This document shows, piece after piece, positions 7,461-48,467 of a DNA stretch of 64,000 nt (its first letter is position 1; the number at the start of each line of letters is the position of its first letter). Under the pieces are notes generated by a model. The model had not been told where the DNA came from. It searched no databases and saw only the letters and a list, made by a program, of their open reading frames with translations. A program made the position numbers and the translations under genes. Source of the DNA: Naegleria gruberi (Eukaryota); NCBI GenBank assembly GCA_000004985.1, contig GG738868.1, one strand, 5' to 3'.

Positions 7461-10431
7461 TTAAAGAGCTGGAATTTTCCTAGATCTCAACTTTTCAATT
7501 AATGATAATATTGCAGGGAATATTACCAATACGTTAAACAATAAAATACCTTGTCCTAAAATAATAATATCGAAAAAGTACTTTTTCACAATCTTGATAT
7601 CATGAAATGCAAGAGGCAGAATGCTGACCACAGTTGACAAGGAACAAATCAATAAAGGAATAGTCAAGAGTGTATATGCCTTCTTTACACTCTTTGTTAG
7701 AATAAATGCCTTTGTAATCTGGAATAGATATTCTGAAAATAATCCAATTTGAAGTGTGAAATTCATAATTGATAATCCATTAATAGGAATTCTTAATAAT
7801 CTCAATCCAGCAACTAGTTCAATTAAAGTTATCAAAGTTAAAAAACAAGTAATGATGGAGCAAATTAAAATATTAATGAAAAGAGAAAGCTTTCCATTTT
7901 TCAGAATTGGAATCTCAAAAATTGATGTTACAAAAACAGAGACAATGGCAACTGACAGAATGGCAAGTGTACAAATAATACCAACATTGAATGGATCACT
8001 GGCAAATGATTCGAATATTAAATCCATGTCATTCACAATGAATGAGTTCTTGGTTGGTTTCAGTCCTGTCTCTGGATAATCAATGGACAATTTTTTCATA
8101 AATTCCAAATTTTGCTTTTCAATAACAGCTGTCACTTCTGAATTCAAAAAATTCTTATTCGAAAAAACAATTCTGGCAGCTGTCATATTATTCGAAACTT
8201 GCTTTGAAATAACAAAGCTTGCCAAATTACTAAATAATGTGTGATGAGTGAATTCATCCATCCAAGAGTTGAACTTTTGTGGAGGAACCTTAAATCTGTT
8301 AGCTCTAAACTCTTCTGAATGAGAACTCATAAAAAATATCCAAGTTTTAAAGTAAGAAAACCAATTGATTTGAGCTTTCATAAATGTTGGGGGAGATTCA
8401 TAAACGTTTTCCAATAAATTCGCCATAGAGGGTGATGCAAAGTCAATCCTATCATTTGTAGAATTTTCCGTATTGTACATGACAAGATAACCTGGATATT
8501 CCAAATCTCCATAATGTGAATTGTAATGATGTAAGAATGAAGTCAACTGAGATGACTTGGCATATAGATCTGTCATGGTGAATGGTTCCTCTCCTATTGA
8601 GGCAATAATTGTAATTGAGCCAACAATTCCACAAATAGCCAATAAAATCAAGATTACATGAACTATTGGATATTTTGGTTTGTTGAATGCATAATCGAAT
8701 ATTTTGTAAATTATTCTATCGACTCGATATTTAGGGAGGTCATCTTTCTGTGATTCTGGTTGCTGTTCTACATTTTCAGTAACTTGCATTTCATCTAATT
8801 GAGTAAATTGAATTGTTGGTTCCTCTTCTGTTTCTTTTTGAGCTGAGTTCTGGTTAACTGAACTTTCCATTTCTTCTTCATCAATTTCATTACCTTCTTG
8901 AATATTATCTTCTGCATTGTCCAAGTTCATAGAGTCAGTACTTGGAACTGGAACAAATAATTCCTGTCGTTTCGAATTAAACTTGAATTCCAAAACCAGT
9001 AGAGGAGTAATTCCAAAGATTGCTGTAAAGAAGAGGAAAATAACTGAAACCATAGTTTGCCAAGCAACACTAAACAAACATAATGAGAACCTCCATTTCA
9101 CAGAGAAACTTACCTAATTGCCATTATTATTGGATGTTTCATTACTATAACAACGAACATTAAAATACAGCACATCACAATGAGTGTGAAAATTAATGCA
9201 GAGATGACTTCTCTATAGTATCTACCAGAATTTTTAACAAACTTTTCATATAATGTTTCATTCTCACTTTCATTGGTCAACTCTGACAAACCTTCTCTAT
9301 ATCTATTAAAATAGGTCTGTAAAATGAATAAACCATCTGATCCAATACCAACCAGAAATAGTGGTAAAGCCTGTGCACTGAGTGGATTCAAATTATATCC
9401 AAATATTAAATGAACAATTCCAAAAGATGAAAAGATATCCATCACAATCAAAATAATACTCAAAAAACCAATTAATATTCTCAAAATGATCGAATCTTTC
9501 GAATCTCCTCTCATCAGTACAAGTGTAGTCACCACCATAACAAGAGTAATTGAAAAACTAATCAGAAACATTGGACCAACACTCACAAATGTATCTGTAA
9601 TATCTTGTGTTAATGAATATTGAGAATTATAATATAAGGTTACATTTCCTGGAGAAACATATTCCACATTCTCATTCAATTTCTCAAATTTGTTCAATTC
9701 TTTTCTTGTTCTTTCCATTAAATTGGAAAATTCCTTTTCCCAAGCTGTAATTTCATTTTCATGATCTGAAAGTAAAATTGCATAATATTTAAGAGCTTTA
9801 GCCTTTAAAATTGTTGTCTTGATAGGATTCCACTCAACTGATCCTAAAATTGATTCAGACTCCAATAAATCTCCACTTGACAATCGTTTAGGAATGGACA
9901 AGGTTTTGTGGATATTCGAATCTTTCATTAATTTATCCTTATTGAAATCCCAAAATGACATAATATCAAGAGTCATACATCCACTAGAATCCATTCTCAA
10001 GCAAATATCTTCAAAAAACACATTCTTCCCATCAAATGTCGTTGAATTTAATTGATTGACTTGATTAATTATTTGATGAAAATATAAAATTGTATCTTTT
10101 GATATAATATCCATTGTTTGATTATTAACTTCACTCACAGTTAAAATAATGCTCACTGCTCTCATATATATTTAGGAAACAATAAATTCATTTCGTCTCG
10201 TTTCAACTTGGCATTAGAATGTGAATGTGTTAAAAGTTTAAAAGGATCCGAATCAATTTTTAATTTCCAAACACTCAATCCACAACTCGCCAACAAAATC
10301 ACCAAACAAACACAAAAACTAATTATTGGATATTTAGCAGGAAGTGTCAACATCATTTTTTCAGTGTCAACAATCATGTGGAAGGATGAACCTGAATGCT
10401 TCAACAACACACTTGTGTATGCACCTTTCAT
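7461..10431 (-). CDS. Patched / Dispatched-family (RND superfamily, sterol-sensing-domain) 12-TM transporter-like protein, about 990 aa. Exon 2 is 10165-9114, a 44-nt intron (GTAAGT..TTTAG) lies at 9113-9070, and exon 3 is 9069-7461. The N-terminal TM1 segment (10431-about 10166) is in a different frame (see findings).
   Basis: SSD-type helices including the GxxxD-like motif LFLVGIGSDGLFILQTYF. Two TM bundles, each preceded by a large extracellular loop. The ORF-track stop at 9110-9112 is the TAA inside AG|GTAAGT, and splicing gives ...HPIIMAI-S-VAWQTMVSVIF in phase. Confidence 0.75.
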
Positions 10432-15183: not shown

Positions 15184-18100
15184 TCATTCACCTGTATGCC
15201 TGACCAATCCATCACCAACCAATGATGTACCTTCAGTGATTTCATTCATTTCCTCATCAAACTTTGTTGCTTCAATAACTTCAGTATCAATTGGATTGAC
15301 ATGATACTTATCCTTCAAAAGATATGTTTTACATAGTCCTTTTCCTTTCACTTCCACCATTCTTTCTTCAAATTCCATACCTAAATCATAAACTCTTTCA
15401 TAGGTAGATCTGGAAATATGAATTCTTCCAGGTAATGAAGTTGATTCCATTCTTGAGGCAAAATTAATAGTATCTCCCCATAAATCCTGTTTGTTGAAAT
15501 CAATAATATTGAAAGGAAGTTCAACTTACGTAAGCAAACTTTTTCTTACCCAAAACTCCAGCAATAACACTTCCAGTATTTAAACCAATTCTAATATTGA
15601 CCTTCTTATTGTTTTCTTCGTTATATTTGTGAATTACAGAGAGAGTATCAATGGAGAAACGAAGAGAACGTTCTGGGTGATCTGATTGAGGATAATTATG
15701 AAGACCTCCCACACAAAAATATCTTTGTATGGCAATTGCAGTTAGTGAACTCAATTTTGATAAAAGACAACTTACGCATCCCCAATTGTTTTAATCTTTT
15801 CCAAATGATAAATCTCTGTCAAATCATCAAATGCATTCACAATAGCTCCTAGCATTTTGATGAGCTCACTTGGGTTCATTCCACTACTCAATTGAGTGAA
15901 ACCAACCCTTTAACATTTGTTATTAAAAAGAAATTCAACTACAAACTTACATATCCGAAAAGAAACAAGTAATATCTTGGAATTTTTCTGCAATTTCAGT
16001 TTCGCCTGATTTCAATTTGATGGCAACTGCTTCTGGAAGGATATTCCTAAGTAATATATCTGAATTCTTCTTTTCTTCATTGAGAAGATTATTCTGTTTC
16101 TTCTCCATAGTTATATCTTTGAAAAATCCAACAATAATTGTCTTTTTATCCTCATTCCTGGTAACAAACAGATTGAGGGAAGCTGGGAATCTTGTTTGAT
16201 TTTTTCTTACACAATCTACTTCATATAGCTCACCTCCTTGTGATTCCAAATACTTGTTTCTGTTATCTATGAATTGTTTCAACGCAGTTTCATGAGATGA
16301 GTCAAACAAATGTTGCATAGGTAATCCCATAACTTCAGACGGGTTCTTGGAGAACATCTTTTGAGCTGCATTGTTGAATAATAGGATTTCTGATTTTTCA
16401 TTTGCTATGAAAGCTCCATCAATCATTGATTGTAGAATATTACTAACTGCATCTGAACCTTTAACTGCAGAATTTGATTTCTTGAAATTCCACATGGGAA
16501 TAGTTTTGTAAAATACAAAGTTTTTAAACTCTTCATTAGATTCTATCCACTCTGATGGGACATATGCAAGGAAGGATCTAAGGATAGTCATCTCATTGTC
16601 AAACTCTGTTATGCATCTATAGAAGTACCATCCCAGTACTAGCATAGAAATTATAGTTATGCATAATACAATTATTGAGAGAGTTCTATTTGGGCTTTCA
16701 GTATATTTTACTATCAAATCTAAAAAGTGATTGATTCTAGTTGTAACAAAGTCATTCAAGTTGTAAAGATACAAAACATCATAAAATCTTTCAATGGTTT
16801 TCTTAGCATTTAGAGGATTGAATAAGTTCTCTGTGGCTTCTGCAGCTTTAACACAGAAAAACGTGATTAAATCAATGAGGCTTGTACAATTATTCATGTG
16901 CTCAGTAGTATTACAATTTGAACCAATTAACATTTCATCTATTTCATCAAAAATTCCTATTAGCTTGTCAGTATTATTTGATCCATATACTATTTGATTG
17001 TAACTTGAATGTAATATTTGCACGTGATCTCTATTTTCTAATCTGTATTGATCAGCAAGTGCACTAGTGACAACAGCTGGATGATTAACAGCTTTTCCAA
17101 GAGGTAGTACCTTATATGAAAATATTTCATTCAATCTTTGAGTCATTCTATTAGAAACTCTCACCATGTAACTGGCTAAATCAATGTTGAACATTGCTTG
17201 CTCTGCTTTGTCAGTATTATCTGAAAATTCATAATAAAACAAAACGATGGAAACTATTATCAAGACGCATATGATTAATCCAACAATTAAGGTCTTATTC
17301 TTTTCATTAGGCATTAACTGTTTGTCAAATTTTTTCATCTCATCATGTTTGGATTGCTTTTCCAAATCCTGATAAATGAAACCAGGAATGTCTTTTGGCA
17401 ATTTTTTGAACATGGAGAGTACAATAGAAAATATCTCCATTTCAATTCTTGATATTATTAAGAATGTCAAAAAAATTCCCAGTACAGAAATACCAATGCC
17501 AATAACAATATTGAGTAAGAGATTTCTAGTTTCATCGATAAAGGTCTTTTGGCTAACTTGCATCGATTTACAAAATGCTAAGAAAGCATCAGCACCTGTT
17601 CTTCTATTTTGATAAATATACATAAACTCATAACTACAATATTAATATTATAAATTTGAATTCTTCTTACCTCGTTACAACTTCATAAAATTTCATCTTT
17701 CCATTCATAACTGAATTTTCAATGTGTTCCAAAATGACGGAGTTTACTTCTCTTGTAGAAGCATATCTTTTAAAAATGTTAGTAAACTCTTTCCTTATTC
17801 CTGTATCGTTAGGGAGTGGAATATTGATAAGCTTATCTTCTATTGTAAAATCAGTAAACATTCCAGGTGTAAATACGCCTGAATTGGAGTTCTCCTCCAA
17901 CTTTCTTAACGCTTCTCTCTTTAGTTCAATCTTTTCCATAAAGGTGCTGTTGAACAATTGTATATTATCGTATTCTGTTGTATTAACCAATGGAAATGGA
18001 CTTTTTAAATCATCATAAAACTCCCAAACTATCTGAGCCATTCTCAAATTTCTAAATAAACCACCATAAGTACTCTGGATATAACATGAATCCTTAATAA

Positions 18101-20324
18101 GAGGAGATTTTGACAATAATGTTTGATAATAATTAGTTAATGCAAAACAAACAACCACCGTAGCAATACATAAGGAGAACATGAAAGCATAAGCAATTGT
18201 TCTTATTTTGGATTGGTAAGGAGAGCTGAGAGCATTTCGCAAAGCTTCTTCCTTTTTGTTCTCTGAGAGATTTTCTATTCCTTCAAAATCTTGTTTGCTT
18301 GTGAGAATTTCATCATCATCTTCTCTGAAGGCCTTTCTATCAACAGGGTAGATTCTCAAACTTGACCTTAAATTTCGTTTCAAGTTAGGTTGTTTGTAAT
18401 GCTTTGATTCCTCTTCTTCTAGAACTGTCGCTTCTTCAAACAGTTGACTTGATAAGTTCTTGTCCAACTTGATGGATTCCACATATTTAGCATAGTGCCG
18501 TATAACAGTTTTATCATGTGGGAAATTCTTCATCAAGATTCCGAAATTTTCATCACAATACCTAGTTAATTTTGCTGAAAGAGAGTTTAAATTGGCTAGC
18601 TTTGATGTATTTGGCCTTTCAATAGTAAGCTCTTTCCAGAATGCTTTATGAGCAATTTTGAGCTCCTCTTGTTTCTTTTCAAGAATAGAAATTGCATTCT
18701 TAATCTCTAATGTGTACCGACCTTGACATGACAAATTACTTTGATCTCTTTCAAATTGTTTCACTCTATAATGCATATTGAGAGTTTCCCAATAATTTCC
18801 TCCTAAACGAGATGCTTTCTTTAATAGATAAAGTGAAAAATTATACCTATTTGTATCATTCCATCTGTGTCCGATCATTATGGCTGAAGTTGTTATCAAC
18901 TTGGGATCATTAAACTGTTTCTTTGTGGAAATTCCCTTAATAAATGAAACCACCAATTCAATATCTTGTGCGGAAGAGCAAAATCTCAAAAACAATTTCA
19001 GTTGTCTTAGAGAATTTTCTAATGAAAGATAGATTTCGGCCGATTCTTTCTCTGTAGAATAAGAATCTTGTCGAGAATAGGAATTCCTACTAGCCATATG
19101 GCCAACAACAGCAGATGGAGATTTCATTATTGACCGTATTCTTCTCATGATTGATCTAGTGTAAATTTCTCCAATCAATACACCAATAATGGAGAAGATA
19201 AGTGACAATCCAAGAACTATTCCGAAAAACATTGCAATTCCCATCATGTCTTCCATTTTAGAATTCACCAATGATGATACCAACACTCCAATGCTAGCAC
19301 CAACTGAGCAAAGTGTACTTGCAAAATGGATAGTATTCTCAAATCTTCTGAAATAGGATAATGTATAAATTTGCACAACAGCCACAACCAATGAGAGAAT
19401 CATGTGTACTATTGATCTGATGTATAAGTATTGTGGTGGTATTACAAACATGAATAGAATTCTGAATAAAGTAACAGAGAATGTCACCATCGTAGAGAGT
19501 GAATCTTCACATTGAAATGGAAGAGAGGTTTTGAGATCATTGATTGGCAAGATGAATGTATAAATTGCTGAAAAGCAACACAGCACAATCATGCCAACCA
19601 GACTAATTACTATCAGGACAATATTATTCGCTCCATAACACGTCTTGGAAGGAAATCTCATCAAGGTATAATCATTCAAATTACAATCAATAAAACTAGA
19701 CATTACAAACATCATGAAAGGAGCCATCAATAACATTACAAATGAATAAATAATCATGTAAAAATCAAGCTTTTCCTTCTTCTCGGCAAAGAATGATCGG
19801 GTCTTGAGTACCATTAGGAAGGGCAATACCATCATCAAGACAATAAATAGAGCTATTAAGGCAATAAATAATTCATAGGGAGATCCTAGAGCATCAATAG
19901 ACAATGTGAGCGGGAAATTTAAAACCCTAGCAACCCAACCTCCATAGAACCCAAATGGTGCTACAATCCGTGATGATAAGGTAGAAGCTGTATAATCATT
20001 AGAGTAGTAGGTTGATGAAAAATTAATAATCCATCCAATGAACATGTAATGTAAATGTAACCAACCAAACAAGACATAATAGCTCCAACCCTTCATATGT
20101 GTATCCGATACCTTTAAATTCACTAAATATTGCATCAAACTAGCATTGAAAATTCTCCTCAAATTAGATATCAATCCAGATTGTGAATCACTTGATGATA
20201 AGGAAGATGTGGATGAGCTAAATGATAACTGAGAGGCTGTATTTGAATCCAAGTTATTGTAGTTATTCAGGGTACCACCTATTGTTGTGGAACCATCATG
20301 CGTAACAGAGAACGACTCGTTCAT
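15184..20324 (-). CDS. Large membrane-anchored PAS-domain class III nucleotidyl (adenylyl/guanylyl) cyclase, about 1654 aa. Exons: 20324-17671, 17633-15951, 15907-15776, 15722-15530, 15486-15184. Introns: 37, 43, 53 and 43 nt.
   Basis: Splicing reconstructs the cyclase catalytic core FSDM|VGFTQLSS..IKTIGDA|YFCVGGL..RIGLNTGSVIAGVLGKKKFAY|DLWGDTINFASRMESTSLPGRIHIS. All donors are AG|GTAAGT, AG|GTAAGA, GC|GTAAGT or AC|GTAAGT with AG acceptors, and all phases are consistent. PAS-like segment LLFNNAAQKMFSKNPSEVMGLPMQHLF. More than 10 predicted TM helices in the N-terminal 900 aa. Confidence 0.85.
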
Positions 20325-26091: not shown

Positions 26092-27627
26092 ATGAATATC
26101 GAGCTCAATGACACATCTCCTGCAACAGTCGACAAGACAAACTCTTCCAACAACTTTCTAGATGCACACAATGATGTACTCTCTGGAAGTTCTCTCGATA
26201 TCCACCACCATCCAAATTCTCCAACTTTTGCTGACCACCAACCAACTTCTCCTTCCTCACCTCCATCTGGCGTTAAATACAGAGAAGATTTCACCATCGA
26301 TATAGAAGCTGCCAAGCAATCTGCCTCCAAGTCTACAACCTCCAGATCAAAGACAGTTTCGTCTTTGAAGAGTAGGGATTCAGATATAATTTTTACTATT
26401 CATACATGTGTGGGAAAGATTCAATTATCCAAATTGAGATTATTTAGTTTGGTTTCCTTGTTCATTAACTTGGCTTCCTTTGTCATATTAGCTGGTCTTA
26501 TCATTGCTGCTTTCGTCCTGCAAGATCAATATAACAATTTTTGGGAAGGTTTGGACACAGACACAACCTATTATAGACAACGAATGATTTCTGCTTCGAG
26601 AATGTCAGTTTTTTCAAATGGTGATAAGGCAACCACAAAGCTATACTATGATGAGTATGTGGTCTACATGTGGAAGTTTAGTAATAACACTGGGTTGTTC
26701 AAGACAGTTGTTCCTGAATCTGTTAGAAATGCTGCCTTAAAAGGAAAGACTAATCCTGAATTGGATACAACCAAAGCTGTTTATCAAGAACAAGGAGCCA
26801 TGTTTTTGGCTATGGCTGGTAATTATACTACGGCCATGTATTTGTTAAATTCTGCAACTTACAAGACTTATTTAGCTGGTTATGATTCAGAGTTTCAAAT
26901 TATGGTTGACTATGTTCAATCTGCAAAGAAACAAGCTCAGAATGTTTCTGTGGTCATGGTTACAGTTTCGTTGGCTGTTATTTTATTCTCTCTCGTATTG
27001 GTAGTTCCTGTCATTATTTCTTCATTTGTAGTTTCGATTAAGAAGGACGAATCTGTTAATAGAAAACTAAACCAAGCTAGAACCTTCTTATTGATTGATA
27101 CCATGCAACATGCCAAGATGAGACAATTATTTAGAAAGCATTGTGAAACAGAGTTGAGTTTGGAAAATTTCCAACTTTTAGAAAAGATTACCGATTACAA
27201 AATGTATTGTGAAAGAAGTTTCGAAATTCAAGAATATTTATACGAAAGCAGTGAAAGAAGTGATACCATTTCAGATATTTCTGCTGAAAATAAGAAGAAG
27301 GGTTATGCCAAGAAGAAGTTCAATGAAAAGGATTTGCTCGAATGTGAAAAGAAGAAATACGAAATTGCATTCGAAATTTACTCTGAATTCTTGGATGTCA
27401 GAGGTGAGAAATCTGTCAATTTAAACAAGCAGATTACTGAAAAGGTCAAGCAACACTTGGATTTATTCGCCACTGGTCAGAATGAACATTTAATCGATTC
27501 ACTTTTCGAACAAGTCGAAGCCGAAACTTGCATTGTCATGTTGGATTCTCATCACAGATTCAAGCAAACCATCGAATTCCAAAAACAAGCCAAGAAGGAT
27601 ATTATTACCTCAAAGAAGAAACATTAA
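26092..27627 (+). CDS. Two-TM membrane protein with an extracytoplasmic loop domain of about 140 aa and a C-terminal RGS (regulator of G-protein signalling) domain, 511 aa
   Basis: ATG start. TM1 LFSLVSLFINLASFVILAGLIIAAFVL and TM2 VSVVMVTVSLAVILFSLVLVVPVIISSFVV. RGS-like C-terminus LSLENFQLLEKITDYK..YEIAFEIYSEFLD..VNLN..CIVMLDSHHRFKQT. Confidence 0.7.
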   Translation: MNIELNDTSPATVDKTNSSNNFLDAHNDVLSGSSLDIHHHPNSPTFADHQPTSPSSPPSGVKYREDFTIDIEAAKQSASKSTTSRSKTVSSLKSRDSDIIFTIHTCVGKIQLSKLRLFSLVSLFINLASFVILAGLIIAAFVLQDQYNNFWEGLDTDTTYYRQRMISASRMSVFSNGDKATTKLYYDEYVVYMWKFSNNTGLFKTVVPESVRNAALKGKTNPELDTTKAVYQEQGAMFLAMAGNYTTAMYLLNSATYKTYLAGYDSEFQIMVDYVQSAKKQAQNVSVVMVTVSLAVILFSLVLVVPVIISSFVVSIKKDESVNRKLNQARTFLLIDTMQHAKMRQLFRKHCETELSLENFQLLEKITDYKMYCERSFEIQEYLYESSERSDTISDISAENKKKGYAKKKFNEKDLLECEKKKYEIAFEIYSEFLDVRGEKSVNLNKQITEKVKQHLDLFATGQNEHLIDSLFEQVEAETCIVMLDSHHRFKQTIEFQKQAKKDIITSKKKH

Positions 27628-29793: not shown

Positions 29794-30182
29794 TTTTTTT
29801 ATTGATTTGTTTACTAATGAAATGGTGCCAAGTTTGTTTTGGAATGTTAATGGAAGGAGATCACAGTAGAATAGTTGAAAGAGTGAATAATCATGAGAAA
29901 CTCAGTTGCCTTGGAGGAATGTATTTGAATTTATTTATAAATATTCGAAACGATGAATTTTCCAAATGTCCATTTACAATTGTTTAGAGTTGAATGAATT
30001 ACAGTTAATATGATGAAAATGGGTTAATTTGTAATTGTTCCATAATTTGATGACCAATGGGAAATTAATAAATCGTATCGTTCAATGAAAGCACCTCAAC
30101 ATCTTAAAGATGAATAAAGACAATTTCTAAAAATGGAAAATTGATATTCAAAATTAATTTTCCAATTAATAATGCAACAGCA

Positions 30183-30743
30183 ATGCACAACAAAAGAAAA
30201 AAGCATAAACACTCGCCAATTTTCTTAAATAAAAAATCCATACAACACTCCACAATGAATTTGATCAAAGCATTCCAACCCACAAGCAATAGAAACTCAT
30301 TCTTGAGTTTGTTGTTCGTTCAAAGTAGAACTTACTCAACCACACACCACAAACATCCAACAGGTCACCATCACAGTCACATTCATACTGAGAGTAGCAC
30401 AAAGAAGGAGCAATCAAGTAAACCAACTGCCTCCTCTAAGAAAGCTGGTACTAATATAACTGATACTCCTGTGAGTATTTTCGAGCAACCAGAAGTTGAT
30501 ATCAATGAGAGAAGTACTGAACCTCTTCCATGGGACAGAGAAAGAGAAGGTAAAATACTCGAGAAGAAACTCTCTGATATTGATGAAATCAAATGGAGAG
30601 AAGCAGAGGATAGACAAATTGGATCCATTATCTATAGAAGAGCAGAGGAGGTCTGTATTGAAAATCATGATCATGCTCTGCCACAACCACCAGTTGATGT
30701 TTCTCAACAATATGTCAATGACGATAAGCCACTTGATAAGTAA
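30183..30743 (+). CDS. Hypothetical His/Ser/Lys-rich protein (about 186 aa); start codon uncertain (ATG at 30183 or 30255)
   Basis: ORF only. Low-complexity N-terminus. No homology recognised. Confidence 0.3.
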   Translation: MHNKRKKHKHSPIFLNKKSIQHSTMNLIKAFQPTSNRNSFLSLLFVQSRTYSTTHHKHPTGHHHSHIHTESSTKKEQSSKPTASSKKAGTNITDTPVSIFEQPEVDINERSTEPLPWDREREGKILEKKLSDIDEIKWREAEDRQIGSIIYRRAEEVCIENHDHALPQPPVDVSQQYVNDDKPLDK

Positions 30744-38282: not shown

Positions 38283-39185
38283 TTAAATCCAAGAACGACG
38301 ATTATTGTTATTGTTGGCACTATCTTCAAAGTAAAGGAAGTCAATCAAGAACAAAGCTCCCAAAAGAACAGCCTTTTGTTGAGGTGTAGCAGTAGCTGGA
38401 AGTTCAATACCAAAGTTGTCAGCATCTGTGAAAGCTTCCTTGAGGAAACCACTCCACTTTTTACGAATTTCACCAACTCTTTGACCATCCTTTTCAATGT
38501 GGAAAGTCCAACATTCACAACATGGTGAAATAATGTCAAACATTTTAACTCCTGAAGCATCAAAAACATTCATTTCTCTAGAGAATAAACTACATCTCAA
38601 TTCAATCTTACCCAACAAGGTGTTTGTTGCAGTTTCAAAAACATTAACTTCATGGAAGAAGAAACAATATGGTCTATCCAATGTGATGAATTCTTGACCA
38701 TTTTGTTTCAAAGCAATGTGCATCTTGAATGGTCTTCTTGGACCACAATATTGTCTAGCACAACAATCAGATTCTTCCAAAGCAACAGCTTGATATCCAT
38801 TTTCAAAATGGACATCATATCTATTCTCAGTTTCAAATCCAGTCAATAATTCAAAAGCTTCAATTCTTTGCTTGACCTGAATCTTTCTATTAGGAGCAAA
38901 GATTTGTTCAATCAATGATCCAGTAGTAGTAGTGGTTGTTGTAACTTGTTGTTGCATAATTTGTGGTTGTTGTGGTGGCATATAGACTCCTTGTTGTGCT
39001 TGTGGTGGCATATATCCTTGTTGTGGTTGTTGTGGAGGAATGTAGCCTTGTTGTGGTTGTTGTTGAACATATCCTTGTTGAGGAGGATAACCTTGTTGTT
39101 GTGCATAACCTTCCTGTGTTGTTGGTGGTACATAGACTCCCTGTTGTTGAGGTGGATAGCCTTGCTGTTGTTGTTGAGGAGGCAC
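38283..39185 (-). CDS. Phospholipid scramblase family protein with a Pro/Gln-rich N-terminus. The 5' end is unresolved: the ORF begins at GTG 39185 and no in-frame ATG lies upstream before a stop. A polypyrimidine tract plus AG just upstream (39186-39220) suggests a missing 5' exon.
   Basis: Scramblase core motifs DCCARQYCGPRRPF and ISPCCECWTF, a C-terminal helix, and N-terminal PQQQGY repeats. Confidence 0.75.
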   Translation of the reverse strand: MPPQQQQQGYPPQQQGVYVPPTTQEGYAQQQGYPPQQGYVQQQPQQGYIPPQQPQQGYMPPQAQQGVYMPPQQPQIMQQQVTTTTTTTGSLIEQIFAPNRKIQVKQRIEAFELLTGFETENRYDVHFENGYQAVALEESDCCARQYCGPRRPFKMHIALKQNGQEFITLDRPYCFFFHEVNVFETATNTLLGKIELRCSLFSREMNVFDASGVKMFDIISPCCECWTFHIEKDGQRVGEIRKKWSGFLKEAFTDADNFGIELPATATPQQKAVLLGALFLIDFLYFEDSANNNNNRRSWI

Positions 39186-39687
39186 GTAGGCTTCGTTATT
39201 TGGTGGTGGTTGGGCAGATGAGGTTTGATTTATGGATAGCGAACAATATCATGTTTTATTGGTTGTTCTTGTTCTTGTTGTGAATATTATCTTCTTCATC
39301 AAATATATTGTCATATTATATATAGGTCTCATAATATAAGCACAATGAATTCATCCAATATAAAATATCGGATATGATGTAACATTGCATCACAGTTAGA
39401 AAAAAAACCATCATGCCCATTATAATAATTCTGCATTTCACCTCGGCTTTGAGACAGCCCTTTGAATTTTTCGTCTCCAAGTTGATTCTAATTAGAAGGA
39501 GGAAATGTTGATTCGATTGGGCGATGAATGTTTTTCAAATAGAAGATTTTTAAACTGTAAAGTTCAGAGTTAATGGGAATGTGAGGTTCATTACAACATG
39601 CAAATTGTCTTTCCTTATTAAAAATTGTACAATGCAGGTGATCTATATTGTAAAGGTATTGTAACATGTGAAAAAATGAAACTCTTT

Positions 39688-40716
39688 TTATTTCAACAAT
39701 TTAACAAGATAATAATTGGCTTCCTCATTTCCTCCTCTAGCCGATTTTCTAAACCACTTAATAGCTTCCTCATTATCCTTCTCCACTCCATCTCCATTCA
39801 AATACATGACTCCCAAATTAAGCTGAGCATCAGAATGTCCTTGATTGGCTGACATTTCAAAATACTCACGTGCCTTCTCAAATGATTGAGGAATTCCTTC
39901 ACCACCACTTGCATAAATACATCCCAAATCACATTGAGCTCCAGAATTTCCTTTTTTGGCTGCTTTTGTGTAATATTTAACGGCCAGTTGGAATTCTCCA
40001 AATACTTGTTCGTAGAGAATTGCTAAATTGTATTGAGAGGCATTGTATCCTTGTTCAGCTGATAATTTGAACCATTTGAGAGCTTTCGAATATGATTGTG
40101 AAATGTCTCCCTCGCCATTCTTATAGAGTAATCCTAAATTATATTGAGCCATGGCAAATCCTTGCTTGGCAGCCTGTTTAAACCAACGCTTAGAATCCTG
40201 ATATGATTGTTTCACACCATATTCACCTTCCAGACAAATATTTCCCAAAGTATTTTGAGCTAGGAAGTTTCCATTCTCTGCTGATTTCTTGATCCATTCA
40301 ATTGCTAATTCGTCAGATTGTTCGACTTCTTCTCCATCCATAAATAATCGTCCAAGTTTGTATTGGGCAATGGCAAGATTGTGATTGGCAGCTTTTTCAT
40401 ACCATTCGAAAGCTTTCGTATTTGATTGTTCGATACCTTCTCCCTTTTCATACAGTACACCTACATTAAATTGTGCTTCTGGATAATCTTGATGAGCAGC
40501 TTTTTCCGTCCATTCGAATGCTTTCGAATAATTACCCTTGTCATGATAAAGATTCGCCAATTTAAATTGATATTCAGCATTTCCTTCAACTGCCAATTTT
40601 TCACATAATTCTTCTTCTTCCCTCTGTTTCTCCAATCGTTCTTCAACAATTTCTAACCAATTATTAAAAGCTTCAATTTCTTCACGTGTCGTTGACCAAT
40701 GGATTTTATCTTGCAT
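39688..40716 (-). CDS. Sel1-like repeat (SLR/TPR-like) protein, about 342 aa, with at least 7 Sel1 repeats
   Basis: First ATG at 40716. Repeats of the form AQxNLGxLYxxGxGVxQSxxKAxEWYxKAA. Confidence 0.8.
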   Translation of the reverse strand: MQDKIHWSTTREEIEAFNNWLEIVEERLEKQREEEELCEKLAVEGNAEYQFKLANLYHDKGNYSKAFEWTEKAAHQDYPEAQFNVGVLYEKGEGIEQSNTKAFEWYEKAANHNLAIAQYKLGRLFMDGEEVEQSDELAIEWIKKSAENGNFLAQNTLGNICLEGEYGVKQSYQDSKRWFKQAAKQGFAMAQYNLGLLYKNGEGDISQSYSKALKWFKLSAEQGYNASQYNLAILYEQVFGEFQLAVKYYTKAAKKGNSGAQCDLGCIYASGGEGIPQSFEKAREYFEMSANQGHSDAQLNLGVMYLNGDGVEKDNEEAIKWFRKSARGGNEEANYYLVKLLK

Positions 40717-40889
40717 TTTTTTTGTGTGCAATTTTAGAGCGACACAACATGTCACAATTTAAATATCAAAAATAGAACGCAATTCAAATTGCTACTTCTA
40801 CTTTACAATAATTATTGAGATTCGAATAGTTTATATTAACTTTATACAAAGGAGGAGTTGGCGAAAATGAGTCAAACTAATCCAGATAA

Positions 40890-42387
40890 TTATTCCCGAT
40901 GTTGTTGAGTCATGATAAATTGTTTAACTTCCTCAAAAACTTGTTTCGAATTATCATGATCAATTGCTGATAAAGTTTTCACAGAAACTGTATCAAGTGG
41001 ATGTTCAGTAATCTCATTCAGGAATAGTTTAGTCATATATTCGATACATGCCACTGGATTCTTCTCCTCTGCTTCATTAAATCCTGAAAAGTATTTTGAA
41101 AAACTCTTAGTGGCAATCTTCTTTTCGAATAAATCTCTCTTATTGAATAATAATACGAAAGGTACCTTGTAGAAGAGTGCATTATTTACAACTTCATTGA
41201 AAACTCGTAAACTTTCCTTCACTCTCCAATAGCCATTATCTTCGTAGAGATTTAAATCAAATTCTGAGAGACTTGTTAAAAAGACAACAGCATCTACTGT
41301 ATTGAAAAAGTGAATCCTGTATATTTCATTATTAATATAAATTCAATATATTTAAATAGTTGATTACAATATTTTAAATATTTTAAATATTGTTAAATTA
41401 CAATAAATTTAAATGATTCAAAGAATGAGTGCAACATACCATTTACGACGTTCATTTCTCTGACCTCCAACATCAACTAAACGTAACTGTTTTCCATCAC
41501 CAACGTCAAATTTCATATCTGTTATTCCAATGGTCTTGGTACGAGTTCTGATCACATCCACAACTGTTGGAACATATTTATCGGAACAAATTCTATCTAA
41601 ATTCTCAAAGAGACTGTCATTTTCCAATGGAAATATTGTAGAAAAAGGTTGAGAAGATGTTAAACAATTCGTCGAATATTTCCAAATTTGATTAGATTTG
41701 AAATTATTTGCATCAATTCGAATCATTAATTGTCATCATGATTATTATCAATTTTTTCAAAGTGAATACACAATAAACTGGTCAATTAATCAAGAAACGT
41801 TCAAACTTACTATTCAGTTGAATCATATAATTGAAATTTCTCTCTATTTTCATATGCTTTTTGAATTCCTGCATCTTTCCACAGAGAATACAATCGTTTA
41901 GACCAAGAAGGATCTTCCAAATCATTTGTATTCAATGAATTTATAATTAATTTTGCAGTTTCTCTATTTTCTGGTTGTTCAATTGGAATATTCAAGTGTT
42001 GTGTTGCTGCCACAAGATTTTTAGCATTTTCCAACACGTTTAATCGGACAATTTCTATTAATTCAATTCTCTCCTGATCGTGCGTTATTCCTACACCATG
42101 AAAGAATTGTACTTGTTTGAAAAGTGTTGATTTTCCTATTGGAATTGGGTTGAATTTTTGAATAGAATTGATTATTTGCAATTTTATATAAAGAATTTGA
42201 TTAATATTAGTCATGATTCGAATAAAAAGAACTTACCTGATTCACCAGCTCCCAGAAGAAGAACTGTAATCTCTGATTTGTTTTTTGCTGTGGCTGCTGA
42301 TCCTCCATTAGGATTGTTGGAAGTTGGAGTAGCCATCATATGATGTTGGCCTTCCTTATCATGAGGCGAAACTACAATATTACCCAT
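40890..42387 (-). CDS. Heterotrimeric G-protein alpha subunit, 358 aa, 4 exons: 42387-42237, 42135-41811, 41613-41440, 41316-40890. Introns are 101, 197 and 123 nt.
   Basis: Splicing reconstructs MGN..LLLGAGESG|KSTLFKQ (P-loop), ..QLYDSTEY|LFENLDRICSDKYVPTVVDVIRTRTKTIGI..LVDVGGQRNERRKW|IHFFNTVDAVVFLTSLSEFD..VLLFNKRDLFEEKI..LSAIDHDN. Donors are AG|GTAAGT, TA|GTAAGT and TG|GTATGT. All phases are consistent. The 358-aa length is typical for Galpha. Confidence 0.9.
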
Positions 42388-43521
42388 TATTATTAAGAAA
42401 ATAGACGAATGATGATTCTATTCGAAAGAGAGGTTTTTTTGATGTATTGAAAAATTGTATTAATAATAATACTTTGATGTAATGTTGTTGTGATGCTACT
42501 TCAGAGAGATGCTCAGTCGCTATCCAATTCTAAACAATTAATACCAATAAAGAACACAATTAGAAATTATTCGAAACGATGTGTTGTGATGGCAGTCCAA
42601 AGAAAAAGATACCAATTTTCCAAACAAGCACCTATATTAACTGACTAGCAACAGAAGAGTACTCTGTGATATTTTAATTTTTTTACACTTGTCAAGTGAC
42701 AAACAACCATCACCGTGATAGTGCACAACACCAACGAACAGCTTATTGATAACAGCTATTTTCTCACAACTAGCATTTGTGGTCACATACTGCCATTTAA
42801 ATGGAGAGATGAAAAATTTCAGTTTGTGAGCGTACAATTAGGTGAATTGCAAAGCTAGTTGAAACTTACAATATGACCACTCATATAACTTTGCTCATTG
42901 GAAGAAGAAGAGATTGAAGATTCAATGAGTATAGGACACAGTTGATGGGGAGGACAAAATATCTAAAAAATGTTAAAATGTTCATTACATTGTCATCATT
43001 TGGTTGAAAAATTGTTAAATAATTTGAAGATCATATTCGGAATGGCTTAGCAAAAAACTATCTCTCACCTGTGTTACATTTCAAGAACTTATCATTCCAA
43101 CAACAACTTCAAATCACATTTTTTATAGATGCATTTCCAGCCTTATTATTAATAATTCAAATACACACCATCACCTTCCCGATACATCAAAAAACCCATT
43201 CATACAAAACAAGCCTTTAAAAATTGTGCGGGAGATGACGAACAAAATGATGATGATTTGATGTGTTTGATATTTTGCCGGGGTGATGATGATTTAAGGA
43301 AACCCTCAACAATACAAAAGGGCAACAAGTTGGGATGAAACAATGTGTGGAAAGGCGAAAGTCTCATCTGAGAATTTTGTGTTGCCTTTGCTGCAACCGA
43401 ATCTGAATAATGCTGCAGGCAACAGTTAAAAAACAAATTCATTCCAAGGCTTGAATTGTCAGCATCTTTGCAGTCAATATTTCCAATAGAAAGGCTTGGT
43501 ACAATTATCATCACAAGAGGA

Positions 43522-45561
43522 ATGAATTTTAATTGGCGCCAATTATTTGGTTTATTAATTGCACTTGTTTCAGTAATAATATTATTGGAAAGTAATCGTG
43601 ATGGTTTAGTATTGAGTGTTGGTGCTGTTGGTGTTGTGAATATTACAATTCCTTCTTCAGGTCCTAAATTTCCCAAGTACGAATGTATGACACAAACACC
43701 AGTCAATCAAAAGTATTATCCAACCATGTACACTATCGATACTGATTATTATGAATTTTGTCAGATTGATGACAGTGCAAAGGTGCCGAAAATTGTGAGA
43801 GAATTGAATAGATTGGATACTTGTGCAGAGTTTTTCTGTCGATCGGATAAGGTTTGGGATTTTAGAAATAGTACACAGCTGTCATTGTTTGGATTCATGT
43901 TAAATCATTGTTTGTATTGTGAGAGTAATGAGTCAATGGCTAAGGAATTTAGAAATCAAGTGAGAAATGGCTCTTGTCCTGCAATGGTACTGCCAAAAGG
44001 GTTAAATTTTGTGGATGCTTTTTATGGAGTTGCTTCAGTTCATTGCAATTTGAATGATTTGAATTCGAATGGATTTGTGAACTTTCCACTTGTGGATTAC
44101 AACTTGTTCCTCTCTGAATACTTTATGAACGATTTTGCCAAGTATAGGAGGCAAGTCTTGTTGGAGAAAATTCCAGACAGCTACAAGGATGCCCTCAGTA
44201 ATGTCACTCTCAATTCCCTCGTAAGATATTATTTCAGAGATTATTCCGATTATTCATATGCCAATCTCACTCAAACAATCAAGTCACCAACTGACCTACC
44301 ACTCCTGTGCTGGTGCAGATATCAAGAACCATCAGTACAATCGTTCGGATATCAATGCAATGAATTCTATCAAAATGGCTATCTTTCCTTCATTTATCAT
44401 TACAGTGCCATCTTCTTTTCAATCATTTTCAGCTTTTACTGCTATGGAATTGTAATATTCATCATTATTCCAAGAGTTTATGAACGATTCTCCTCATTCA
44501 AACAAAGAACAGACATCAAAATGACATCATCCATTCCAAAAAAGATTTTAATGACATTGAGACACTTTATGGATATTGTCACTCATCCTCCTGTATTTTT
44601 TGCATTGGGATCTTTATGTGGATTTTTAGAAAATTTTGCAAGAAACATTTTCAACTTCAAGTCCACAAATCCATTCTATCAAGTTTACTTTTTCGGAATT
44701 TTCAGAGCACTCAGTTGTGCCTTACTATTGTGTGGCTATTCTTCATTAGTTATTTCATGGGCTCATGTTATTGATCTATCAAAGAGAAAGGCTGTTGTGG
44801 AGGAGGGAAAGACAGAAAAGAAAATCAAACTCAGAAAGGGATTGTCTGTCTTTAATCTTTCAGTTTTAATCATTTTCTATGTGGCTGTAATTGTTGTGAT
44901 TATTATTTCCCTGGGAATGTTTGTAATCTTCCAGAACGACACTACAGCTTGGATTTTGATGGCTGCTGCCATCTTGTTCTACTTATTGACCTTTGTTGCT
45001 GGGTTTTCATTCTATGGTATCAAAATTCTAGTAACTTTGAGAAAGACAAGCAACTTTGGAAGTTTAATAGAGTACAGATTCACAAAATTCATCATGGCTG
45101 AAACTTTTCTCTTCTTTATTGTGTGGGCTATTTGTTTCCTCATGTTGTTGACGTACATGTTTGGATTTGACTTTTTGTCACTCTTCTATGGATTGAGTAG
45201 AGTATTAGTTGGAGATGCTTCCCTTGTTGCCATGTTGGTGCTCTCCTCATACATTACATTCAATGAACCAGTGTTTGCAAGTTTGTACGGATGGAGAGCA
45301 TTGAATGTTTGGAAAATTGTAACATCATGTGGATATGAAATCTACAGAAAGAAGAAGGAAGCAAATGAACAATTAACAGTGAAGGAAATAGATTTGAAAC
45401 AAACCAAGGTCGTTGAAGACAAAAACGACAATTTACCAAACGACACAAACCTCAATTCGCCAGAAAATTCAAAATCAGAGAGTGTACCCAATCAAGTTGT
45501 GGATAGTAATCCCGAGGATTCTCAACAAGCCAATCAACACGAGCAAGTATCAAGTATATAA
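43522..45561 (+). CDS. Seven-transmembrane receptor-like protein (about 680 aa) with a Cys-containing, N-glycosylated ectodomain of about 300 aa and a Ser/Asn/Glu-rich C-tail
   Basis: ATG at 43522 followed by hydrophobic signal LFGLLIALVSVIILL. Seven predicted helices between about 44370 and 45260. No confident family assignment. Confidence 0.55.
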   Translation: MNFNWRQLFGLLIALVSVIILLESNRDGLVLSVGAVGVVNITIPSSGPKFPKYECMTQTPVNQKYYPTMYTIDTDYYEFCQIDDSAKVPKIVRELNRLDTCAEFFCRSDKVWDFRNSTQLSLFGFMLNHCLYCESNESMAKEFRNQVRNGSCPAMVLPKGLNFVDAFYGVASVHCNLNDLNSNGFVNFPLVDYNLFLSEYFMNDFAKYRRQVLLEKIPDSYKDALSNVTLNSLVRYYFRDYSDYSYANLTQTIKSPTDLPLLCWCRYQEPSVQSFGYQCNEFYQNGYLSFIYHYSAIFFSIIFSFYCYGIVIFIIIPRVYERFSSFKQRTDIKMTSSIPKKILMTLRHFMDIVTHPPVFFALGSLCGFLENFARNIFNFKSTNPFYQVYFFGIFRALSCALLLCGYSSLVISWAHVIDLSKRKAVVEEGKTEKKIKLRKGLSVFNLSVLIIFYVAVIVVIIISLGMFVIFQNDTTAWILMAAAILFYLLTFVAGFSFYGIKILVTLRKTSNFGSLIEYRFTKFIMAETFLFFIVWAICFLMLLTYMFGFDFLSLFYGLSRVLVGDASLVAMLVLSSYITFNEPVFASLYGWRALNVWKIVTSCGYEIYRKKKEANEQLTVKEIDLKQTKVVEDKNDNLPNDTNLNSPENSKSESVPNQVVDSNPEDSQQANQHEQVSSI

Positions 45562-45702
45562 CTTTTTATTGCATCCAACAATGTCAAATGTATTTAATTG
45601 TGAAAAATCCAAAGACAGCAAATTCCTTAACATGACAATCTTCATTATTGCTTTAAACCAACATGAAATTTCATTCAATTAGACTCAAACAATCAAAACA
45701 AA

Positions 45703-46272
45703 ATGGACGGAATTAATTTACTCGAAACTGATCATACCAAGCTTCGTGACAAGATTTCACAATTCAGAAATAATGATAACTGGACAAGTCGTCAACTGTT
45801 GATCAAGGAAATTATTTCAAATGTGTGCCAACACACTTCTGCTGAGGAAAGATATCTCTACGATTTGATTACCCAAAAATTCGACAATGGAAAATTCCTC
45901 TACGATAAGCAATTGATCGACAATCAAGTCCACAAGGAAATGATGCAATTCTTACTCGACAAGATTGATATTCTCTCAGTTGGAAATATGTCATTCCGTG
46001 ATTCCTATCAACAAGAATGTGAAAAACTCTTCTCAGTTCTCGAAGATCACATGAAGGAAGAAGAACAATTAGTTTTCCCTAAACTTCGTGAAACTCTCAA
46101 CACTACTGAATTGAGTGATTTGTACAAGAATTTGGAATGGGCAAAACAAAATGCTCCAACCAGACCACATCCATCAACTCCAGTTGTTGGATCAAAGATT
46201 TTACATCCAGTTGCTGGACTTGTTGATTCACTTACTGAAAGTTTGACTGGAACTACTAATGTTAACAAGTAA
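45703..46272 (+). CDS. Hemerythrin-like (HHE cation-binding) domain protein, 189 aa
   Basis: Spaced His/Glu pattern H..EERYLYDLI .. HKEMMQFL .. LEDHMKEEEQLVFPKL characteristic of hemerythrin-like domains, judged by eye. Confidence 0.5.
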   Translation: MDGINLLETDHTKLRDKISQFRNNDNWTSRQLLIKEIISNVCQHTSAEERYLYDLITQKFDNGKFLYDKQLIDNQVHKEMMQFLLDKIDILSVGNMSFRDSYQQECEKLFSVLEDHMKEEEQLVFPKLRETLNTTELSDLYKNLEWAKQNAPTRPHPSTPVVGSKILHPVAGLVDSLTESLTGTTNVNK

Positions 46273-46631
46273 TTCAATTGAATCAACACAGTTGTGAACT
46301 AGAATAGATTGATTTAAATTGTATTGATAATATTAATAAAGTAAAGGTGTGTCAAGTGTTGTTTACAATAAGAATGTTATTGGAAAGGGCAAGAGAATTA
46401 AATGTCAATCAGTTGTTTAACCTTCCATGAATGTCTTTACAAACGAAGGAGCGTTCCTTTTCATCTAATGCCCTTCTAATTACTCTGTGTTTCGCTCACT
46501 TCAGCAGAACAATTATGAAGTATCGGATTTTGAAAACTAAACTTAAAAAAAAAATACGCAAACATCTTCTGCTGCTGCTATTAGAATTTAAACAAATAAT
46601 TAACGGTTAATCCTTCATCACTCACAACACA

Positions 46632-48120
46632 ATGAATCCCGTAGATCCGAATTGGATTGAAACTCAACATCGTTCCTTTTTAAATTGGACGAATAGTCAA
46701 CTACGAAACAAACATGTTCAATTGACTAATTTAACAGAAGATTTAAAGAGTGGAGTCCATTTACTTGAATTACTCTCCGAATTACTTCATACTCCAATAC
46801 ACATTCCAATTACAAATCCACAGTTTAGAATACAAATGATGAATAACTTGACAGAAGCTTTGGAAATTATTCGAAAGGATTGTGACATTTCCTTGATAAA
46901 TATTGATTCGAATGATATAGTAGATGGAAATACCAAGTTAGTTTTAGCATTAATTCACTCATTGATGTATAAATATCAAGTATGTAAAGCAATGAGTGAT
47001 GACAGAAATGTCATTGACAAGAATACGCCAATGACAGTTGTTGAAAAGCAATTAATTGATTGGTTGAATTCAATTTTATATAATTCTCAACCTGTAATTA
47101 CAAATATTACAAATGATTGGACAAATGGTGAACATTTGAAAAATCTAGTTCATTATTTTCTTCCACATAATTTCGAACAAGTATTCGAAAGTTTGAATTC
47201 AATGAATCCGACTGAGAAAATTGCAGAATGTATTAAATTAGCTGATCAAGAATTGAAAATTCCAAAGATTTTAGAAGCTCAAGATATTTCCAATGGTCCA
47301 GATCAATTTTCCATGTTGGCTTATTTATCCTATTATAGAATGGCAATTAAGAAACAATTAGATCAGAAACCACCATTGGTAGAAACTGTTTCTAATACTC
47401 CTCCTCTTCCTCAACCAACAACCAATAGAAGTGGTACAAGTTCCTCCTCCTCCTCAACAACAACCATCATTGGTAGCTCAACAAGTTCCTCCTCCACCAA
47501 TTCAAGTCGAAACTAAACCAATTTCACAGCCAACAGTTTCTTCTATGAATTTTGATGATATTTCAAGTGCTCCACCATTGTCTCCTCCTTCCATTGATGA
47601 GCAAAAATTTAATTATCAACAACAACCTCCAGTCCAGAATTGGAATTTACAACCAAGTCAACCAGTCCAACCAGTTCAATATTATCCACAATCTCATCAA
47701 CAATCATTGACCAAATCAACCTATCTTCCAGATCAATCCAATCAAGCAAATTCTCACATTTCTTCATTATATTCACCTGGAAATTCAAATTCTGTTCAAC
47801 TCATTCCACAAATTCCTTCTCCAAATCAACAAGTGTACGGACAAGAAAACAATCATCAATCATTGATGGTTCCACCACCTCTAATGCCAACACAATCATT
47901 GCAACCATACATGGATCCATATCAACAGTTTAATGGAATACCAACTCAACACATGATGATGATGAATCAATATTCTCCTCAAATGCAACCTCCTCCACAA
48001 ATGCCTCCACAACAGCAACGACAACCAATGATTATCACCACAACTACTACTACAAATAATCATCAAGTATTCACATCGGATAATATGCAATATGGATATT
48101 ATCAACAACAATTTTATTGA
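46632..48120 (+). CDS. Actin-binding-type tandem calponin-homology (CH) domain protein with a long Pro/Gln-rich C-terminal low-complexity tail. The reading frame changes near 47430 (see findings).
   Basis: CH1 QHRSFLNWTNSQLRNKHVQLTNLTEDLKSGVHLLELLSELL and CH2 KQLIDWLNSIL..DWTNGEHLKNLVHYFLP. The downstream +1 frame stays open for 229 aa of PQ-rich sequence up to the stop at 48118-48120. Confidence 0.65.
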
Positions 48121-48467
48121 GTAAATTGAAAATTTGAAATTCAATAAATTTTTATTGTAAACTTTCAAGTATTGGGAAATTTCCACTTTTTTGATATGTT
48201 TGTGGTATTGATAGATACGAATCTGAATATGAATCTCTGAGAATTCGAATATTTTTCTTGTAATTTCCATTTTTGAATTCTTTTCAAACCTCATTTAGAT
48301 CTAATACAACATTTCACATTCTTTCATTGTATTCGATAGTAGTACAATCCTATTCTAGCTGATTAGTATTGATTTTGGCGCGTTGTAGTTTTATATTCTC
48401 TGACACAAAATTCCTTAAATACTGAACTTTCGGCAGATTTCTTCCAGAACAGTTCCAAAAAAAACAA

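Follow-up and report, generated by a model that had tools for sequence, protein, structure and literature searches.

An annotated four-exon Gα gene of Naegleria gruberi with a conserved GTPase core and a non-canonical N-terminus, G5 box and C-terminus

G-protein α subunits (Gα) have undergone lineage-specific diversification in Naegleria gruberi (PMC3971589), and the genome of its congener Naegleria fowleri codes for 13 Gα proteins together with 28 7TM-RGS proteins and few GPCR candidates (PMC9283941). Two of the N. fowleri proteins, Gα5 and Gα7, are self-activating, Gα7 by experiment (PMC9283941); this property has been linked neither to a sequence signature nor to a self-activating subfamily (PMC3971589, PMC9283941). 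Gα7 (PDB 6ne6; Bosch, Jeck and Siderovski 2022, PMC9283941) is the top solved relative of the N. gruberi protein considered here, UniProt D2VF92 (E = 1e-60, 209 bits), with which it shares the genus, the domain organisation and the catalytic residues. It is a paralogue rather than an orthologue of D2VF92, because the best N. fowleri database matches (P0032 and P0071) are only 38–39% identical to the latter. The animal Gα-i/q/s/12 proteins have the same fold, and D2VF92 possesses all of their G-box motifs, the Arg finger and the catalytic Gln; however, it apparently lacks their αN helix, has neither an N-terminal palmitoylation Cys nor the Cys at position −4, ends in a tail that is 4 residues shorter, and reads SAID rather than CATD in the G5 box. 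The animal chains score alike against it (Gq 198, Gt/i about 190, Gs 177 and G13 175 bits), so that D2VF92 is not assignable to any animal class.

The gene lies on the minus strand of a 64,000-nt stretch of N. gruberi DNA (hereinafter the window). By exact-sequence look-up, its 358-aa product is identical at 358/358 residues to XP_002677164.1 (EFC44420.1, D2VF92_NAEGR), which is titled 'G protein, alpha subunit family [Naegleria gruberi strain NEG-M]' and is placed on a 427,589-bp scaffold that also bears the neighboring genes of the window; the same look-up matched three further ORFs of the window exactly to N. gruberi proteins, and the product of the neighboring CH-domain ORF agrees at 100% identity with one from N. 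gruberi. We therefore read the locus, with a probability of about 95%, as the already annotated NEG-M gene for a 358-aa heterotrimeric-G-protein-type α subunit with four exons. Neither the gene nor its precise exon structure is new, both having stood in the public annotation since the genome was deposited. Homology searching was misleading on this point until the exact look-up was made, no high-identity match being returned: the closest relatives in the first search were Willaertia proteins with 46–48% and Naegleria proteins with 43–44% identity, and the lack of an N. gruberi match above 50% at first suggested an unannotated or missed gene, or an unsampled organism, which the exact look-up refuted. 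D2VF92 had stayed unseen because the sequence that stands for its 90% cluster is a prokaryote-style 134-aa ENA ORF fragment (P0123), the sole 100% match in a search with exons 1–3. In a gene-position index, exact look-ups for neighboring ORFs and for protein P0122 had returned no entry. A literature search for papers on the accessions of D2VF92 found none. With the annotation public and the Naegleria Gα expansions documented (PMC3971589, PMC9283941), the locus carries little weight as a discovery.

A sequence-only reading of this DNA, made without database searches, had reconstructed here what it called a canonical Gα and had proposed a search with the G-alpha HMM. That search returned the Pfam G-alpha family (PF00503) over profile positions 16–333 of 333 with a score of 336.2 bits (cut-off 48.8) and E = 2.8e-100, a value that excludes chance. 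The motifs it had listed, namely GAGESGKST, DVGGQRNERRKW, NKRD and SAID, are all present and in register, as are the switch regions. The G1 P-loop, G46-A-G-E-S-G-K-S-T54, spans the exon 1/2 junction, and its residues G46, G48, G51, K52 and T54 are invariant in 121 sequences. Switch I contains the invariant R183 and the nearly invariant T186 within DVIRTRTKTIGI, the residue following T186 being Ile in D2VF92 and Thr in Gα-i1. Switch II, with D206-V-G-G-Q210, R211, E213, R214, K216 and W217, falls entirely in invariant or nearly invariant columns; the G4 motif NKRD (275–278) is invariant, and the G5 box reads L-S-A-I-D (332–336) with a conserved A334. The 120 homologues have 25 invariant columns, including those of P-loop residues, R183, D206–Q210 (DVGGQ), W217, N275, K276 and D278, and D2VF92 carries the same residue in each of them. 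As judged from these alignments, it keeps all the residues needed for guanine-nucleotide binding and hydrolysis (GAGESGKST, Arg183, Thr186, Gln210, NKRD and Ala334).

A helical domain placed between G1 and switch I sets Gα apart from the small GTPases. In an AlphaFold2 (AF2) model built on the 120-homologue alignment (mean pLDDT 89.2, pTM 0.85), both the Ras-like and the helical domain are present, the inserted all-helical domain being formed by helices at 70–181 with pLDDT above 90. Foldseek comparisons with Gα-q, -i and -13 structures gave target-normalised TM scores of 0.92–0.94 and an rmsd of 1.8–2.0 Å, the span aligned to full Gα structures covering about 320 columns. D2VF92 thus has a complete Ras-like GTPase domain with the inserted helical domain.

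The description as canonical stands for this GTPase core, the helical domain and the catalytic residues; it fails for the N-terminus, the G5 box and the C-terminal tail. In classical Gα subunits the αN helix is amphipathic and highly charged, and contacts both Gβ and the membrane. The 28 residues that precede β1 in D2VF92 include 4 charged and 5 Pro or Gly residues, where the medians for 98 homologues stand at 13 and 1; a more extreme composition in this segment is seen in just one of these 98, the Willaertia protein P0001. The AF2 models show no helix, and pLDDT values below 50, for residues 1–35 of D2VF92 and likewise for residues 1–50 of P0001. On composition and low AF2 confidence, read without a control prediction for a classical Gα, the αN helix seems to be missing in D2VF92, and in both complete members of its clade, N. 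gruberi D2VF92 and Willaertia P0001, a disordered Ser/Thr/Asn/Pro/Gly-rich segment is predicted to replace the charged helix. As for lipid modification, the first 165 residues are devoid of Cys; Gly2, for which possible myristoylation had been proposed, is present, and residue 6 is Val. The simple N-myristoyltransferase (NMT) pattern (PROSITE PS00008) is G-{EDRKHPFYW}-x(2)-[STAGCN], in which position 6 is a small or hydroxyl residue. Myristoylation at Gly2 is possible, yet it is not predicted by this pattern, which Val6 does not fit; the proposal was a fair but weak one.

At the other end of the protein, the LSAID form of the G5 box, with Cys-to-Ser and Thr-to-Ile replacements, recurs in just one of the 120 homologues (again Willaertia P0001), TCATD being the form in 84 of the 120. 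From the G5 box to the C-terminus there are 27 residues, against 31 in most homologues, which leaves D2VF92 4 residues short; several other protist Gα proteins have an equally short or shorter tail. The α5 helix is modelled at 337–357. In classical Gα subunits the C-terminal tail of α5 inserts into the activated GPCR, and a Cys at position −4 is the pertussis-toxin ADP-ribosylation site of Gi/o. D2VF92 ends in ...QQHRE and is, as had been pointed out from the sequence, without a Cys at −4; with similar scores across the classes and a grouping with heterolobosean sequences, it does not classify as Gi/o.

The closest homologues are encoded by two Willaertia magna genes, ABK040_008126 (P0001) and ABK040_004337 (P0002), with 44–50% identity. 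In a neighbor-joining (NJ) tree these and D2VF92 form a clade in 97 of 100 bootstraps, the next branch being a partial N. gruberi paralogue; on this tree D2VF92 belongs to a small heterolobosean clade of one N. gruberi and two W. magna genes. The three proteins have in common a Cys-free low-complexity N-terminus and KT[IL]G in switch I, and D2VF92 shares its LSAID box with P0001, the complete Willaertia protein. P0001 differs from D2VF92 in an N-terminus that is 17 residues longer and in a long C-terminal helical extension. Unlike the D2VF92 gene, the Willaertia genes have no P-loop intron, and the P0002 gene has an intron near, though not at, the position of intron 3; no synteny of the window with the Willaertia loci was found. 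As an aside on the Willaertia annotation, the last annotated 'intron' of the P0002 gene (9062–9110 of locus L002, JBEGDK010000026.1) reads in frame as VREVIEYLKKYYLQSV, which aligns with the Gα region preceding G5, and the deposited 317-aa model of ABK040_004337 seems to be truncated by this spurious last intron.

The best-surviving alternative concerns how the protein signals: D2VF92 might have the Gα fold and nonetheless work outside the classical receptor/Gβγ heterotrimer, as a switch that activates itself or otherwise needs no GPCR and that is governed chiefly by RGS-domain (GAP) receptors, which has been shown for some Gα proteins of N. fowleri, plants and Trichomonas. This reading draws support from the lack of a predicted αN helix in both complete clade members, the few charged residues ahead of β1, the C-terminus that falls short of the canonical tail and the Ile in place of Thr after Thr186 in switch I; it also has precedents in N. 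fowleri Gα5 and Gα7 and in the many 7TM-RGS proteins and few GPCR candidates of that genome (PMC9283941), and, 13 kb away in the window, there is a gene for a 2-TM protein that carries an RGS domain at its C-terminal end. Nevertheless, self-activation is not readable from sequence, the literature describing no self-activating subfamily (PMC3971589, PMC9283941); switch II, the other Gβ contact, is fully conserved; short or divergent tails occur in many protist Gα proteins; and the RGS neighbor may be a coincidence in an RGS-rich genome. We regard this reading as unlikely. Its more specific form, in which the D2VF92/Willaertia clade would be a distinct heterolobosean Gα subtype that has lost the αN helix and the canonical receptor-binding tail and signals without being coupled to Gβγ or a GPCR, for instance as a switch that activates itself and that membrane RGS proteins reset, appears to us improbable.

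Returning to D2VF92 as an annotated Gα gene, the remaining alternatives bear on its exon structure (Table 1).

Table 1. The D2VF92 gene in positions of the window: exons, introns and the entries of the ORF list that overlap it
Feature	Position	Strand	Length	Details
Exon 1	42237..42387	−	151 nt	M1–S50 and first base of the G51 codon
Intron 1	42136..42236	−	101 nt	phase 1; gtaagt...aatag
Exon 2	41811..42135	−	325 nt	G51–E158 and two bases of the Y159 codon
Intron 2	41614..41810	−	197 nt	phase 2; gtaagt...gacag
Exon 3	41440..41613	−	174 nt	Y159–W217
Intron 3	41317..41439	−	123 nt	phase 0; gtatgt...atacag
Exon 4	40890..41316	−	427 nt	including TAA stop 40892–40890; I218–E358
ORF	40890–41222	−	110 aa	ORF list
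ORF	41418–41726	−	102 aa	ORF list
ORF	41810–42214	−	134 aa	ORF list
ORF	42211–42387	−	58 aa	ORF list; starts MGNIVVS, ends just past GAGESGK

Spliced together, the exons give 151 + 325 + 174 + 427 = 1077 nt, that is, 358 aa with zero internal stops. The sequence-only reading had started from the three ORFs of 110, 102 and 134 aa, which are indeed in the ORF list and occupy three frames of the minus strand, and by adding a 151-nt first exon and three introns it arrived at a 358-aa Gα whose coordinates agree to the base with ours and whose four-exon model is that of the reference protein. A correct eukaryotic gene model was here recovered base for base from a prokaryote-style ORF track by a reader without tools; the gene that this reading described as hidden is indeed fragmented in such a track, but it is not hidden biologically and was already annotated. 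The 58-aa ORF of the first exon lies below a 60-aa cut-off and would therefore be missed by it. Exon 1, whose ATG is at 42387–42385, codes for MGNIVVS...LLLGAGES, and so contains the low-complexity N-terminus as well as the initial half of the P-loop, which intron 1 interrupts as GAGES/GKST. Exon 2 codes for the rest of the P-loop, α1 and most of the helical domain; intron 2 sits within the Tyr codon of YDSTE-Y-LFENL. Switch I (with the arginine finger R183 and T186) and switch II/G3 (DVGGQ210RNERRKW217) are encoded by exon 3, and switch III, G4 (NKRD 275–278), G5 (SAID 333–336) and the α5 helix by exon 4. Intron 3 is a multiple of three in length but holds an in-frame stop, so its retention would truncate the protein; the 102-aa ORF runs into it, ending in ...KWYVALIL*. 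The donors are gtaagt, gtaagt and gtatgt and the acceptors tag, cag and cag, every intron having GT..AG ends. The donor motif GGTAAGT is by itself uninformative, with 3 occurrences in the window where chance would give 3.67. Searching the whole 64,000-nt window with tblastn revealed no second Gα copy, and an Rfam scan of the window no Rfam family.

Four independent tests support the junctions of this four-exon, three-intron minus-strand gene for a 358-aa protein, and they agree with the reference model. When aligned to ten homologues, including Gα-i1, the protein shows zero gaps at GAGES|GKST, DSTE|YLF and RRKW|IHF. With an HMM of the 120 homologues we scored all frame-preserving, stop-free GT..AG alternatives lying up to ±45 nt from each junction: the junctions of the sequence-only reading scored 392.1 bits and beat all 14 others, which were 18–80 bits worse, and the intron 1 pair was likewise the top-scoring one (392.1 against at most 373.6 bits, the next best score). 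Both closest W. magna homologues (L001 and L002) have an intron at the position and in the phase of intron 2, a phase-2 intron within the Tyr codon of DS[AT]E-Y-LF being common to D2VF92, P0001 and P0002. Lastly, we compared the gene with L003, a 1,422-nt metagenome contig (ENA ERZ929261) that is 94.4% identical to window positions 42812–41364 and comes from a related Naegleria strain. Exons 1–3 differ from L003 by 4 substitutions in 650 nt, with 0 indels and a single amino-acid change (N25S): 3 substitutions and no indel fall in the 151 nt of exon 1, one substitution and no indel in exon 2, and exon 3 has zero differences. Intron 2, in contrast, differs at a rate of 19.8 per 100 nt, with 34 indel columns counted in, and intron 3 at 21 per 100 nt over the 76 nt covered, which makes about 20 per 100 nt and 45 indel columns for the two together; the 5′ flank has 6.6 per 100 nt. 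All five of the five covered splice sites, both of intron 1 among them, are retained in L003. Few changes in exons and many in introns point to coding exons under purifying selection and argue against a pseudogene.

That the gene is real and its true transcript uses another first exon or other splice sites, giving a different N-terminus, finds some encouragement in the atypical low-complexity N-terminus encoded by exon 1. Against this, the P-loop half LLLGAGES is found only in the exon-1 ORF, onto which the N-termini and P-loops of homologues align in tblastn; the Met-Gly start fits the family, M1 being invariant and G2 nearly so in an 11-sequence alignment; an in-frame TAG at 42420–42418, 11 codons before the ATG and with no further start in between, closes the frame upstream; N-termini of this kind also occur in the Willaertia clade-mates; in L003, exon 1 has diverged less than the 5′ flank; the alternative junctions score lower throughout; and the reference annotation has the same model. 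We hold a different first exon or splicing pattern to be very improbable. The weakest alternative, a decaying Gα pseudogene in which the three ORFs are fragments and the 'introns' disruptions, might be suggested by a plain ORF track of three unrelated-looking ORFs with stop-containing gaps between them, and by the plausible redundancy among the many N. gruberi Gα paralogues of a lineage-specific expansion (PMC3971589), but it is effectively refuted by the consensus GT..AG ends and exactly restored frame of the three gaps, the match at every column invariant among the 120 homologues, the contrast between exons with 0 indels and 1 non-synonymous change and introns 2 and 3 with 45 indel columns in L003, and the sharing of intron 2 with the Willaertia homologues.

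Several observations concern other parts of the window. A 511-aa ORF at 26092–27627 (plus strand) has a C-terminal Pfam RGS domain (residues 337–497) and two strong hydrophobic segments, at 125–143 and 287–305, around a loop of ~140 residues with NxT/S sites; this layout resembles that of a receptor-like RGS protein with 2 TM segments, and some 13 kb separate the ORF from the Gα gene. The metagenome assembly that contains L003 (run ERR1078381, project PRJEB11402) also holds L004, 98.1% identical to window positions 45347–48133; the divergence of both lies mostly in introns and intergenic DNA, and together the two contigs indicate a Naegleria gruberi-like strain in the sample. ARAGORN predicted a 99-nt tRNA-Leu with anticodon TAG at 30379–30477 (minus strand), within a 200-aa ORF (30141–30743); it presumably contains an intron, and the Rfam scan at gathering thresholds reported no tRNA at this place. 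At 9108–9114 (minus strand) a GGTAAGT donor lies exactly at the end of a 351-aa ORF with a sterol-sensing-domain match (9110–10165), which suggests splicing to the downstream 546-aa ORF (7461–9101), so that the two would make up one NPC1/Patched-like gene. Two ORFs at 38283–40755 (minus strand), for a scramblase (38283–39185) and a six-repeat Sel1 protein (39688–40755), fall between EFC44418 and EFC44420, where one accession number is left for the two, and the 342 aa that the Sel1 ORF encodes from its first ATG have no exact match in the protein collection; one of the two ORFs may therefore have a different model in the reference annotation or be absent from it. The adjoining signalling-type ORFs at 15947–20324 (minus strand) code for a PAS-domain protein of 558 aa and for a protein of 885 aa that has TPR repeats of the TmcB type; the exact product of neither is in the protein collection, so their reference models probably have introns or other starts.

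For D2VF92 itself, read as the annotated Gα, the most likely role would be that of a molecular switch between GTP and GDP states within the G-protein signalling of Naegleria, a large and lineage-specific system, and RGS-domain proteins would most likely switch D2VF92 off. With a disordered segment predicted in place of the αN helix, its attachment to the membrane, to Gβγ and to receptors may differ from that of animal Gα proteins. The apparent loss of this helix in an N. gruberi paralogue and its Willaertia relatives is of mild interest, in that it would bear on the coupling and regulation of Naegleria Gα subunits.
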